A DNA stretch of 45,899 bases from a virus (Duplodnaviria; Heunggongvirae; Uroviricota; Caudoviricetes), in the IMG/VR virus record IMGVR_UViG_2711768067_000020; one strand, written 5' to 3'. Both the position numbers and the translations under genes were made by a program. The notes below the pieces were generated by a model. The model had not been told where the DNA came from. It searched no databases and saw only the letters and a program-made list of their open reading frames with translations. This document shows, piece after piece, positions 10,547 to 14,320 of the stretch; positions within the stretch are counted from its first letter, which is position 1; every line of letters begins with the position of its first letter.

Positions 10547-10550
10547 CAAG

Positions 10551-10579
10551 GTTGATTTTTCCGGAATCTGTGGTAAATT
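10551..10579 (+). promoter_or_regulatory. Candidate late promoter pR'
   Basis: TTGATT (-35), 17-nt spacer, TAAATT (-10), immediately after Q. Confidence 0.45.
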
Positions 10580-10627
10580 CGTCATAACGATGGGCTTTTT
10601 ATACCTGACGTTAGAAGAGTTTCTACA

Positions 10628-10650
10628 ACCCGCCACCGAGCGGGTTTTTT
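10628..10650 (+). terminator. Candidate tR' terminator (Q-antiterminated)
   Basis: CCCGCCACCGAGCGGG hairpin plus TTTTTTA. Confidence 0.5.
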
Positions 10651-10689
10651 ATTGCGGAATTAATTACGGACCGTTATTATTCTACTCCC

Positions 10690-10765
10690 GGTCCTTTAGC
10701 TCAGTGGTGAGAGCGAGCGACTCATAATCGCCAGGTCGCTGGTTCAAATCCAGCAAGGGCCACCA
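10690..10765 (+). tRNA. ileZ: tRNA with CAU anticodon (Ile2/Met type, ileZ-like)
   Basis: Cloverleaf folded by eye: acceptor GGTCCTT/AAGGGCC, D-arm GCTC-AGTGGTGA-GAGC, anticodon loop CTCATAA, T-arm GCTGG-TTCAAAT-CCAGC, 3' CCA; very close to E. coli tRNA-Ile2 as remembered. Confidence 0.8.
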
Positions 10766-10865
10766 TCACATACCGCCATTAGCTTATCAGGAAGAGCAGA
10801 CGACACCATAACAGGGTTGTTGGTGCGGGGGCGGGTCCCCGATGGCGGTCCATTATCGGTATTCT

Positions 10866-10942
10866 GCGTTGTTAGCTCAGCCGGACAGAGCAATTGCCTT
10901 CTAAGCAATCGGTCACTGGTTCGACTCCACTACAACGCGCCA
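10866..10942 (+). tRNA. tRNA-Arg (anticodon UCU)
   Basis: Acceptor GCGTTGT/ACAACGC, anticodon loop CTTCTAA, T-loop GGTTCGACTCC, 3' CCA encoded. Confidence 0.8.
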
Positions 10943-11111
10943 CACTTATTTTCCAGGCTCGCTTCGGCGGGCCTTTTTTGTATCTGCGCCACGCCCGGTG
11001 CATATCAACCACAGAGCCTTTCGGGGGTGAGCTTACGGAGTGGTCAGTGTGACTTTCTCTGTGGGCAGATCGCTCCCGGGCGTTGGCTCACCCACCCAAA
11101 GGAACGTCACG

Positions 11112-11544
11112 ATGTTTGGTATTTTTGGTAAAAAAAGCCCGCAGAGCGGCAACGGAAATTAAAAAGTTTGAAAAACGCGATCTGGCACAGGTGGTGATTA
11201 ACGCCGCATACCTGGTGGCCTGTGCAGATGGTGAATGTGAGGCTTCCTAGAAAGCGAAGATCGAACAGGTACTGCGTAATCAGCCTGCGCTGTCCGCGTT
11301 TACGTCAGAAATTAATGCGATTAGCGCAACCATTATCGGTCAGCTGGATACGAACTTTAAAATTGGTCGTCGTGCGGCGTTACGTGAGATCGAGGATGTG
11401 AAACACGATACGCGTGAAGCGGAAGATGTGCTGGATGTGGCGGTGGCCATTGCGGAGGCAGACGGCGAAATTGAGCCGGAAGAGCGCAAGGTGCTGGAAG
11501 AGATTGCCGGTGTTCTGGGTCTTCGTCTGGAGAATCACCTGTGA
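11112..11544 (+). pseudogene. TerB-like (tellurite-resistance TerB-family) gene interrupted by in-frame TAG, possibly also frameshifted
   Basis: Hand translation: MFGIFGKK.. then (shifted frame) ARRAATEIKKFEKRDLAQVVINAAYLVACADGECEAS-TAG-KAKIEQVLRNQPALSAFTSEINAISATIIGQLDTNFKIGRRAALREIEDVKHDTREAEDVLDVAVAIAEADGEIEPEERKVLEEIAGVLGLRLENHL; TAG at about 11248; no track ORF spans it. Confidence 0.55.
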
Positions 11545-11708
11545 CGGTAAAACTGCGCCTGACTGTGGCTGCACTCCTGCTGTTTCTGGTGGTGATGGTG
11601 GATTTCACCAGCAGAATCATGTCGGTGCTGGCGGATGGGGTGCTGGTCTGCGGCATTGTGGTATTGCTGTGGCCGGTGATAAAAAGAAACAGCCTGCATA
11701 ATGCTTGA
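11541..11708 (+). CDS. Small hydrophobic membrane protein (about 55 aa)
   Basis: GTG overlapping the TerB-like stop; two hydrophobic stretches LTVAALLLFLVVMV and VLVCGIVVLLWPV; below track cutoff; coordinates approximate. Confidence 0.35.
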   Translation: MTVKLRLTVAALLLFLVVMVDFTSRIMSVLADGVLVCGIVVLLWPVIKRNSLHNA

Positions 11709-12022
11709 TTTTTTTGTTTGCTGTTTATTAAAAACACTTCTGCATGGTGAATCCCCCTGTGCGGAGGGGCAATCAGCGAGTAGGTATATGGGATAATCGC
11801 GGATTCAGGTGCTGGTACTGAATTCACCGGGAGGCACCCGGCACCATGCTTTGCCACAAAAGTGTTATTTCTGTTTTTCTCAAACTATCATCGTTATCCC
11901 TTTATTTCCGGCTGCGCATGGCGCGGCCTTTTTTTTACGACCAGCCACTGGCAGATGGTCATCCTGTGATTTGATTCCGGTTCCGGCTTTTTAACTCTGT
12001 TCCTGTACACGGGAGAAATTCG

Positions 12023-13873
12023 ATGTCGATTAAACATTATGATGTTGTCAGGGCGGCGTCGCCGTCAGACCTTGCGGAAAAGCTGACACACAAACTGAAA
12101 GAGGGCTGGCAGCCGTTTGGTAGTCCGGTGGCCATAACCCCTTATACCCTGATGCAGGCGATTGCAGCAGAAGGTGATGTGGTGGTCAGTGGTGCAACTG
12201 AGCCGGATTGGTACTACGTCATCGTACTGGCCGGGCAGTCCAATGCAATGGCTTACGGGGAAGGGCTTCCGCTTCCGGATTCATACGATGCTCCGGATCC
12301 GCGCATTAAACAGCTGGCGCGCCGCAGTACAGTTACGCCGGGTGGGGCTGCCTGCAGATATAACGATATTATTCCGGCCGACCACTGCCTGCATGATGTG
12401 CAGGATATGAGTACGCTGAATCATCCGAAGGCAGACCTGAGCAAAGGGCAGTACGGCTGTGTCGGCCAGGGCTTACATATTGCCAAAAAACTGCTTCCGT
12501 ATATCCCGAATAACGCGGGGATCCTGCTGGTACCATGCTGTCGTGGTGGTTCTGCATTCACCCAGGGCGCTGAGGGGACATTCAGTGCGGACACGGGGGC
12601 CAGCCAGGATTCGGCACGCTGGGGTGTGGGTAAACCGTTATATCAGGACCTGATTGCGCGCACTAAAGCTGCATTACAGAAGAACCCGAAAAATGTGTTG
12701 CTGGCGGTGTGCTGGATGCAGGGAGAGTTTGACATGAGCGCCGCCACCCACGCACAGCAACCTGCGCTGTTTACAGCCATGCTGACACAGTTTCGTGCTG
12801 ACCTCTCCGTGTTTAACGCGCAGTGCCATGGTGGCAGTGCTGCAGATGTGCCGTGGATTTGTGGTGACACGACGTATTACTGGAAAAATACCTACGGCAC
12901 GCAGTACAACACCATTTACGGGGCGTACAAAAACAGGGAGAGTGAGGGCGTTTATTTTGTGCCCTTCATGACAGACGGTAACGGCGTCAATACCGCCACT
13001 AACGCGCCGGCAGAAGATCCGGATATTCCGGCATCAGGATATTACGGTGCGGCATCGAGAACGAATGGAAACCAGGTATCATCAAACCGCCCGACACATT
13101 TCAGTTCATGGGCGCGCAGGAGCATTATTCCGGATCGTCTGGCAACCGCTATTCTGAACGCAGCCGGGCGCACCTCAGCCTTCATCAGTGGTAAGGCACC
13201 GGAAATCAAACCCTCGCCCGGCGGCAACACGCCATCGGGTCCGTTTGCAGATACGTCCGTTCGCACAATCTCCCTGCTGCCGGCAGCCGGAGAGGCTGCT
13301 GCGCAGGGCTGGAGCATTAAGGATGGCGGAATTCAGTTGTCAGATGGTGTATTTAAGATCACCAAGCAGAGCAATAAAACCTGGTCCCTGACGCATCCGG
13401 TGGATGACGCAATTACCCTGCTGACACAGGGCGGCAGACTGACCTGTAAGTTCCGCCTGTCAGGCGCACTGACCAACAATCAGTTCGGGCTGGGGATTTA
13501 TCTGTATACGGATGCTCCCGTTCCTGATGGTGTGGCGATGACGGGTACCGGTAATCCGTTCCTGATGTCGTACTTCACTCAGACCACTGACGGCAGAGTG
13601 AATCTGATGCATCACAGGAAAGCCGGAAACACGAAGCTGGGGGAGTTCGGCGATTACGGTAACGACTGGCAGACGCTGGAGCTGGTGTTCACCGCCGGCA
13701 GTGCCACGGTTACTCCGAAACTGAATGGAGTGGCTGGCCCGGCATTCCAGGTTATAAAAGACGGTCTGACACTGGGACTGAATGCGCTGACGCTGACGGA
13801 TGTTACAAAAAATGCAGCGTATGGCGTTGAGATAGAAAGTCTGGTGCTGGAGATAAATGCACCGGCAGCATAA
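12023..13873 (+). CDS. nanS-p: NanS-p-type sialate O-acetylesterase (N-terminal DUF1737-like domain, SGNH-type esterase core, C-terminal binding domain)
   Basis: 616 aa; architecture and position (between Q/tRNAs and holin) match prophage NanS-p homologues. Confidence 0.7.
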   Translation: MSIKHYDVVRAASPSDLAEKLTHKLKEGWQPFGSPVAITPYTLMQAIAAEGDVVVSGATEPDWYYVIVLAGQSNAMAYGEGLPLPDSYDAPDPRIKQLARRSTVTPGGAACRYNDIIPADHCLHDVQDMSTLNHPKADLSKGQYGCVGQGLHIAKKLLPYIPNNAGILLVPCCRGGSAFTQGAEGTFSADTGASQDSARWGVGKPLYQDLIARTKAALQKNPKNVLLAVCWMQGEFDMSAATHAQQPALFTAMLTQFRADLSVFNAQCHGGSAADVPWICGDTTYYWKNTYGTQYNTIYGAYKNRESEGVYFVPFMTDGNGVNTATNAPAEDPDIPASGYYGAASRTNGNQVSSNRPTHFSSWARRSIIPDRLATAILNAAGRTSAFISGKAPEIKPSPGGNTPSGPFADTSVRTISLLPAAGEAAAQGWSIKDGGIQLSDGVFKITKQSNKTWSLTHPVDDAITLLTQGGRLTCKFRLSGALTNNQFGLGIYLYTDAPVPDGVAMTGTGNPFLMSYFTQTTDGRVNLMHHRKAGNTKLGEFGDYGNDWQTLELVFTAGSATVTPKLNGVAGPAFQVIKDGLTLGLNALTLTDVTKNAAYGVEIESLVLEINAPAA

Positions 13874-13879
13874 TAAAAA

Positions 13880-14170
13880 AAGAGCCAGCGACTGACCTGA
13901 AAGAAGACGCTGGCTAAAAGGCCTTATATGTTTGTAGAGACTTATTTTTCACAGACAGCAATGATGCCTGTCAATATATTATCAATATGCGGATTGTTTC
14001 AGTTACAGATGCTTTATTAAGGAAAAAAACAGCCAGCACTGACTTTCGGTGGAGAGGTGCTGGCTCAGAAGGATAGTTGGATTTCACATGATACTTATGC
14101 CTGGCGGTATATTTTCTGACAGACAGTGACGGGTGTTGTCAAGATATTGTGTCATTTATAACCTGAATCA
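13880..14170. repeat. Two imperfect tandem units (about 150 bp each) each containing a hairpin
   Basis: Unit 1 AGCCAGCG..CGCTGGCT then ACAGACAGCAATGATGCCTGTCAATATATT; unit 2 AGCCAGCAC..GTGCTGGCT then GACAGACAGTGACGGGTGTTGTCAAGATATT. Confidence 0.5.
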
Positions 14171-14320
14171 GGGGAGGCCGGAATGTTATCTGGCATTTTT
14201 AGCAGAGCCTGAATGCCATAATCACGGCTCCCGGCGTTGGCCGTCAGTGGGTGACACTGGCGGCTTTTTTGTTTTTCTTTACTTTCATTTTCTGTCGGCG
14301 GTGACGGAGACATACATCAG

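Follow-up and report, generated by a model that had tools for sequence, protein, structure and literature searches.

The question raised by this locus is what a phage late region built like that of Shiga toxin (Stx) phages holds at the position of the toxin genes. The locus is part of IMG/VR virus record IMGVR_UViG_2711768067_000020, a stretch of 45,899 nucleotides that was analysed as a whole and is referred to here as the window. An earlier note on this DNA had pointed out that the gene Q, a pR'/tR' region, a CAU tRNA, a tRNA-Arg(UCU), a NanS-p-type esterase and a holin follow one another as in Stx phages, and each of these parts was recovered at or near the place assigned to it. We consider it very likely that positions 9725–16551 form the module for late regulation and lysis in a non-Stx lambdoid prophage, of a kind abundant in E. 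coli resembling enterohaemorrhagic (EHEC) and enteropathogenic (EPEC) strains. The order of elements is Q, pR'/tR', tRNA(CAU), tRNA-Arg(UCU), a terminator, the tciA pseudogene, tciB, an STnc100/PasD-type small RNA (sRNA), nanS-p, pinholin, endolysin and Rz/Rz1. From Q to Rz all of these features, including the promoters, the terminators and a tRNA relic described below, lie on the plus strand. Judged by homology, the backbone is the one used by Stx phages, with the toxin slot filled by a broken tciA/tciB pair. Such an arrangement is standard in non-Stx lambdoid prophages of pathogenic E. coli; it has been described previously and is not novel. Gene content and order, the homology junctions, the lesions and the prevalence of the locus were read directly from the sequences and are given as observed.

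The identity of the slot follows from its borders. In a pairwise blastn alignment with phage 933W, window positions 10650–11001 are homologous (86%), the homology ends 32 nt before stxA2 and it restarts at window position 11724, downstream of stxB2. Homology to H-19B and other Stx1a phages restarts at 11728 and amounts to about 98% over 12030–14566. In an IMG/VR contig labelled L030 here, the same lambda-type Q lies equally far from the tRNAs, and stx2AB, nanS-p and the holin follow; the contig is colinear with the window over 9000–10990 (87%) and again from 12010. Together the 933W and L030 junctions place tciA-tciB (11112–11708) exactly in the stxAB position. The left edge of the slot is an intrinsic terminator after the tRNA array (10955–10980, 8 pairs), homologous to the element annotated in 933W as "terminator upstream of the stx genes". 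Between this terminator and the sRNA/nanS-p lies a cargo (moron) site open to exchange: Stx phages carry stxAB in it, and in the window it is occupied by tciA-tciB together with the sRNA. The alignments to 933W, H-19B and L030, which run colinear with the window on both sides of the slot, thus bear out the proposal that the backbone is shared with stxAB carriers and describe a lambdoid late region with a cargo slot between Q/pR'/tR' and the lysis cassette.

Neither stxA nor stxB is carried. A tblastn search of the whole 45.9-kb window with Stx1A/B and Stx2A/B at E ≤ 10 gave no Stx remnant (best E = 0.38), in agreement with the earlier note, which had seen no stxA/stxB-like open reading frame (ORF) in the region. 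The value of this negative result is that the window hides neither a toxin nor a new cargo system. With 933W the window shares the element order Q - pR'/qut/tR' - ileZ-argN-argO - stx2AB - nanS-p (L0105) - S - R - Rz, as well as the tRNA promoter region, the pre-slot terminator, an STnc100-like element, the nanS-p architecture, a P21-type holin, the lysozyme and Rz. It differs in that the slot holds tciA(pseudo)-tciB in place of stx2AB, argN is decayed, Q belongs to PF03589 and not PF06530, and the body of nanS-p shows an identity of only about 70%; in addition 933W has a further ORF and an ant gene inside the lysis cassette. In the Stx1a phages H-19B and YYZ-2008, arranged Q - stx1AB - nanS-p - S - R - Rz, the likeness extends from just past stxB through nanS-p and the holin with 97.6–98.5% nucleotide identity (11728/12030–14566), whereas H-19B has no tRNAs in this region according to ARAGORN, a PF06530-type Q and stx1AB in the slot.

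The cargo itself matches the description of a disrupted TerB-like gene followed by a small membrane protein. By alignment with intact alleles, tciA (11112–11544, TerB family, phrog_632 "tellurite resistance") is a pseudogene with two lesions: a +1 frameshift caused by A7 instead of A6 at 11130–11136 (codon 8), which leads to a stop at codon 17, and a GAG-to-TAG nonsense change at 11248–11250 (codon 46). The frameshift and the nonsense codon make tciA inactive here. Pfam TerB matches the C-terminal fragment at 11398–11544 and the intact homologue of phage JLK-2012; no intact ORF spans the TerB domain in the window, and only residues equivalent to 96–143 remain as a TerB-matching ORF. The second gene, tciB (11541–11708), encodes an intact 55-aa DUF3927 membrane protein (Pfam PF13064, 3e-17; phrog_1470 "TciB-like"). 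PHROGs classes both genes as morons, and the names "tellurite resistance" and "TciB-like" are homology-based annotation. PADLOC applied to TciA, TciB, NanS-p and the minus-strand ORF of the lysis region gave no convincing defence match (best E = 0.003), and a literature search on tciA/tciB found no experimental paper.

The O121 and DCE7 prophages also have the TAG allele of tciA, and the allele with both lesions was found in at least seven viral contigs (L100, L113, L124, L058, L062, L079 and L082). Since it recurs in seven independent contigs, it is not a sequencing error. Other independent lesions were seen in three more contigs (L038, L021, L088), and altogether 10 of the 26 surveyed tciA copies (about 38%) are disrupted, with 16 intact.

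We next consider how the slot is filled elsewhere. Among the first 120 matches listed, 88 IMG/VR contigs carrying the tRNA array could be assessed, and the counts from this survey are indicative and not frequencies. Among these matches the slot holds stxAB in 12 contigs, tciAB in 19 and two small ORFs plus tciAB in 5; it is empty in 15 and holds other content in 37. As an indication, tciAB is therefore more frequent in the slot than stx (24 vs 12 among the matches listed), and within the same set every cargo type is found with several Q families. Other cargo includes an ORF of 117–118 aa of unknown function (contig L076, 647–1003) and small ORFs of 131 and 142 aa before the holin (contig L014, 3006–4867).

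Of 5,426 complete E. coli genomes, 4,866 have a match to some part of the region 9725–14530; in 518 a single locus covers 80% or more of it. An exact copy of the window was absent from the complete E. coli genomes searched. The closest match, strain DCE7, is 98.7% identical over 92% of the first 25 kb, and its prophage differs from the window in having another Q and no tRNAs. In non-Stx phages and prophages with tciA-tciB (JLK-2012, PPyecE_EH1910 and those of SMN197SH3, 2011C_4247 and O121 strains) the cargo is 91–95% identical and likewise located between the tRNA array and nanS-p-holin; most of the related tciA copies lack the additional frameshift of the window. Strain SMN197SH3 shows identical layout and spacing, namely Q, tRNA-Ile, relic, tRNA-Arg, TerB, DUF3927, SASA esterase and holin, including the spacing of the two tRNAs and the relic, and its Q is of the same family. 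Phage JLK-2012, with the order Q-tRNAs-tciA-tciB-yjhS-S-R-Rz, differs in a PF06530-like Q and in its tRNAs (Asn, Thr, Gly), and 2011C_4247 differs in having three tRNAs and two additional small ORFs before tciA.

Upstream of the slot, the late antiterminator gene Q (9725–10546) belongs to the lambda-Q family (Pfam PF03589, 2e-54; phrog_127 "anti-termination protein Q-like"). Over its full length the protein shares 31% identity with lambda Q (E = 5e-39), and the alignment shows a 68-aa insertion with extra CxxC zinc-ribbon repeats, by which it differs from lambda Q. The Pfam assignment places it outside two other families: PF06530, found in 933W, H-19B and JLK-2012, and PF06323, found in the Q82-like protein of phage 434. 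Q of the window type is also present in some Stx2 contigs, e.g. L030. As in Q-dependent late operons of lambdoid phages, Q lies directly upstream of the late promoter, its stop codon being 6 nt before the -35 hexamer. It is preceded by ORFs that Pfam assigns to DUF968 (8292–9341) and RusA (9351–9728).

The late promoter pR' (10552–10594) consists of a -35 hexamer TTGATT (10552–10557), a 16-nt spacer ending in TGG and a TG-extended -10 hexamer TAAATT (10574–10579). Six bases past the -10 hexamer, at 10586–10594, lies the pause-like element AACGATGGG, which we take to be the -10-like element that pauses sigma70-RNA polymerase for Q loading, as in lambda. In the alignment the -10 hexamer and AACGATGGG are identical to those of lambda pR', in register and with equal spacing, and pR' is kept in homologous E. 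coli loci. The intrinsic terminator tR' (10627–10652), detected by a terminator scan as a hairpin with a 7-bp stem (10627–10646) followed by a T run, lies about 65 nt past the inferred start, which predicts a leader RNA of about 65 nt; it is conserved in loci L004 and L005. The sequence thus combines a late promoter, a -10-like pause element close to it and an intrinsic terminator. A weak Rfam match to Trp_leader at 10547–10653 is rejected as a terminator or tRNA look-alike below the gathering score. Directly after tR' we assigned a putative tRNA promoter pT (10652–10680; TTGCGG, 17 nt, TATTAT), homologous to the 933W feature "pT; putative tRNA promoter". A generic promoter scan flagged neither pR' nor pT, and the two calls rest on homology with lambda and 933W, respectively.

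The likeness to the lambda Q/pR'/tR' system thus comprises the Q family, the identical -10 hexamer and AACGATGGG at the same spacing and a terminator after the promoter. In lambda, tR' is located about 194 nt from the start, compared with about 65 nt in the window. The distance from tR' to the holin is also different: about 3.7 kb with tRNAs, cargo, sRNA and esterase in the window, and only orf-64 in lambda. The terminator scan gave 10 terminator-like sites in 10400–14400, where 3.5 ± 1.8 are expected, and 6 of the 10 are located on the plus strand between pR' and the holin. Six plus-strand terminators before the holin fit an operon that needs an antiterminator to reach the lysis genes.

How this operon works, from read-through under Q and the use of the promoters to the part played by the tRNAs, is taken over from lambda and Stx phage biology. 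The lambda-family Q would load on RNA polymerase paused just past pR', and the modified polymerase would read through tR' and the terminators at about 10955, 11910, 14177 and 14239. On induction the tRNAs, the cargo slot, the sRNA, nanS-p and the S-R-Rz/Rz1 cassette would then all be transcribed late, and ileZ and argO might also be expressed from their own promoter. The two tRNAs could serve to decode codons seldom used in E. coli and enriched in the prophage's accessory genes: AUA by ileZ and AGA/AGG by argO. AUA, AGA and AGG together account for 20–55 per 1000 codons in paa, Q, tciB, Rz, the perC-like gene and nanS-p and for 6–14 in the head and tail genes.

According to both ARAGORN and Rfam the window contains exactly two tRNA genes, as had been noted for this region, in which Stx phages usually have three. 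The first has the anticodon CAU and is of the ileZ type (10690–10765; ARAGORN, Rfam 69.4 bits). Because it is 75/76 identical to 933W ileZ, and because PGAP, the prokaryotic genome annotation pipeline, annotates it as tRNA-Ile in identical loci, we assign it to the Ile2 type, which is predicted to read AUA after lysidine modification; the same two observations rule out Met identity. The second is a tRNA-Arg(UCU) of the argO type (10866–10942), found by ARAGORN and by Rfam (60 bits) with one non-standard pair marked, and matching 933W argO at 74/77 positions. Its T stem has a C-C mismatch at pair 50:64, where 56 further alleles taken from viral contigs have C-G (44), G-C (11) or U-G (1); with C-C unique among the 57, the window allele looks like a half-compensated or recombinant form. 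Further weak Rfam hits, Plastid-ycf2 antisense to the tRNA as well as asX2 and mir-1260b, are likewise terminator or tRNA look-alikes below their gathering scores. Literature searches on ileZ in connection with Shiga toxin found nothing useful.

The three recognisable genes of an ileZ-argN-argO array (Ile2-CAU, Arg-UCG, Arg-UCU) are not present: ARAGORN, Rfam at the gathering score and Rfam at E ≤ 1 gave no third tRNA. The spacer of 100 nt between the two tRNAs is nevertheless non-random. Alignment with three-tRNA loci identified in it an 80-nt relic of the tRNA-Arg(UCG) gene argN (10773–10852), which keeps the 5' acceptor strand, the D arm, the 3' acceptor strand and CCA, with the anticodon and T arms replaced. 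It is 59/80 identical to argN, and the identity is clustered at both ends. Decay of argN, together with recombination, explains why two tRNAs are present where Stx phages have three. Of the 5,426 complete E. coli genomes, 1,754 carry the relic form, unannotated in all of them, and 922 carry true argN; the two-tRNA form with the relic is accordingly more frequent than the textbook form with three tRNAs. In the viral contigs L036 and L059 mosaic alleles were seen, in which only one of the two arms, anticodon or T, is odd and the other normal; a variant of 81 nt in the Stx2 contig L119 combines an odd anticodon arm with a normal T arm. A distant sister form was found in another phage tRNA array (loci L087 and L196). 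When diverged relatives of the relic were sought with a degenerate pattern, almost all matches were chance ones in coding sequence, and since L087 and L196 are the sole diverged relatives, covariation analysis was impossible.

Three other explanations have to be weighed at this point, two of which concern the slot. The window could descend from a Stx phage that lost stxAB and had it replaced by tciA-tciB, in which case the locus would record a loss of the toxin. The flanks of the slot, 86–98% identical to Stx phages on both sides, would agree with such a history, and the preprint on the Pas sRNAs names repeated stx loss as a possible reason why esterase-PasA-holin loci rarely adjoin stx. Against this, no stx remnant is left even at E ≤ 10, the clean junctions are common to tciAB phages with other Q types and tRNA sets, tciAB is twice as frequent as stx in the slot among the matches listed, and lambdoid mosaicism through recombination in the common flanks yields both states with no direction needed. 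We regard an origin by toxin loss as unlikely. It has also to be asked whether tciA-tciB acts as a moron in this lysogen, by tellurite or colicin resistance, phage exclusion or inhibition of cell division. The intact homologue is a full-length TerB-family protein, both genes are listed as morons, tciB is intact and so are 16 of the 26 tciA copies; with lesions at codons 8 and 46, however, no full-length TciA is possible, the 10 disrupted copies point to weak selection, the best PADLOC match reached only E = 0.003, and the names derive from homology with no experimental paper found behind them. An active pair is highly improbable in our view. We thus keep to a non-Stx lambdoid late module with exchangeable cargo. 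Its backbone is one recombination away from carrying stx, which bears on the origin of Stx-producing E. coli (STEC) and is relevant to avoiding mis-assembly or mis-typing of Stx and non-Stx prophages.

The third explanation concerns the relic, which might be a maintained tRNA-like RNA and not debris, serving as a processing scaffold for the ileZ-argO precursor or as a tRNA mimic or decoy. As a scaffold, its acceptor stem and CCA may keep RNase P and the 3'-end maturation of the neighbouring tRNAs working. Such a role would suit the retention of a 7-bp acceptor stem, D arm, discriminator base and CCA, the near invariance of the relic in more genomes than true argN and the existence of the sister form in another array. 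The minimum-energy fold is cloverleaf-like but weak, with z only -2.1 and 6 of 200 shuffles folding equally well; the T loop lacks the TTC motif, there is no anticodon loop of 7 nt, and the commonest allele, with G for the window's C at 10807, breaks one predicted pair of the central stem. The mosaic alleles amount to simple recombination with true argN, the high identity across genomes fits the recent spread of one prophage segment equally well as selection, and the variation is too small for a covariation test. We therefore judge a maintained RNA to be unlikely and prefer decay of argN. If it were true, roughly one in three complete E. coli genomes would contain an unannotated tRNA-like RNA.

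Several points weigh against the assignment of 9725–16551 as the late module of a non-Stx lambdoid prophage, or against parts of it. The hexamers of pR' agree with the consensus in no more than 8 of 12 positions, which is why the generic scan missed them. The Q family is unlike that of 933W and H-19B, and the Q-binding element and the pause position may differ. Control of the late operon is deduced from sequence, transcription and antitermination both being predicted. The T-stem mismatch of tRNA-Arg(UCU) may impair this tRNA, and the E. coli average with which the codon usage can be compared, roughly 8 per 1000 for AUA, AGA and AGG, is an approximate background figure. The whole prophage may be defective.

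Downstream of tciB follows the STnc100/PasD-type prophage sRNA (11713–11936). The Rfam model RF02076 matches 11713–11885 with 101.5 bits, above its gathering score of 47, although its 3' hairpin fits poorly; downstream comes a terminator at 11910–11928 with a T run behind it. The next gene, nanS-p (12023–13873), encodes a predicted sialate O-acetylesterase of 616 aa and is located between the stx slot and the holin. Pfam found SASA between an N-terminal DUF1737 and a C-terminal lectin-like DUF6645, the same domains as in 933W NanS-p, and the holin was recognised as PF04971, so that the sequence of a NanS-p-type esterase and then a holin stands as first described. The translation contains a GQSN motif, and over 12030–14566 the nucleotide identity to H-19B is 97.6%. 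Esterase activity on Neu5,9Ac2 has been reported for NanS-p alleles of EDL933 (PMC8065619). Alleles of nanS-p are present in many non-Stx prophages, and EDL933 has seven to ten of them (PMC10462455, PMC8065619).

The intergenic region between esterase and holin (13874–14320) contains two strong terminator-like hairpins on the plus strand, at 14177–14194 and 14239–14265, and corresponds in position to the PasA/PasC sRNAs of related phages. It is about 98% identical to the Stx1 phage YYZ-2008 (NC_011356), the PasA-containing reference of the Pas preprint, and we consider it a candidate PasA/PasC sRNA locus, probably correctly assigned on this likeness, for which Rfam has no model. PasA/PasC adjoin esterase, holin and lysozyme genes, RusA, TerB and DUF1627 are the conserved genes of their commonest arrangement, and fewer than 3% of such chromosomal PasA/PasC loci adjoin stx (bioRxiv 10.64898/2026.05.13.724894).

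The lysis cassette starts with a class II (P21-type) holin S (14321–14527; PF04971, 1.9e-32), followed by the endolysin R (15215–15748; PF00959, 7.6e-24), a lysozyme with a hydrophobic N-terminal segment, and the spanin Rz (16027–16551; PF03245, 1.2e-48). The Rz1 lipoprotein ORF is embedded in Rz at 16304–16489; it has a lipobox-like LVVSAC, and Rz1 is annotated at the equivalent site in DCE7. Between holin and endolysin there is a gap of about 690 bp (14528–15214) with a minus-strand ORF of 104 aa (14783–15097). The ORF matches phrog_1853, of unknown function, and covers only the C-terminal two thirds of the profile. At this position related loci carry YdfR/DUF1327 or an IS element.

Outside the module a few further features were recognised in the window. 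At the left end the DicF sRNA (821–872, minus strand, 76.7 bits) adjoins a dicB-like gene (458–646), as in Qin-type prophages. Going by the annotation of the near-identical DCE7 prophage, the ORF at 6301–7059 corresponds to the AcfC-family adhesin Paa, which is virulence-associated; in DCE7, a fimbrial pseudogene is located just upstream of paa. A hokD/sok type I toxin-antitoxin system was found at 7251–7553, with the sok RNA scoring 103.9 bits in Rfam (7251–7400) and hokD annotated at the equivalent DCE7 site. PerC/Pch homologues in EHEC prophages activate the locus of enterocyte effacement (LEE), and a gene for a PerC-family (Pch-like) transcriptional activator is located at 17017–17331, downstream of the lysis cassette.

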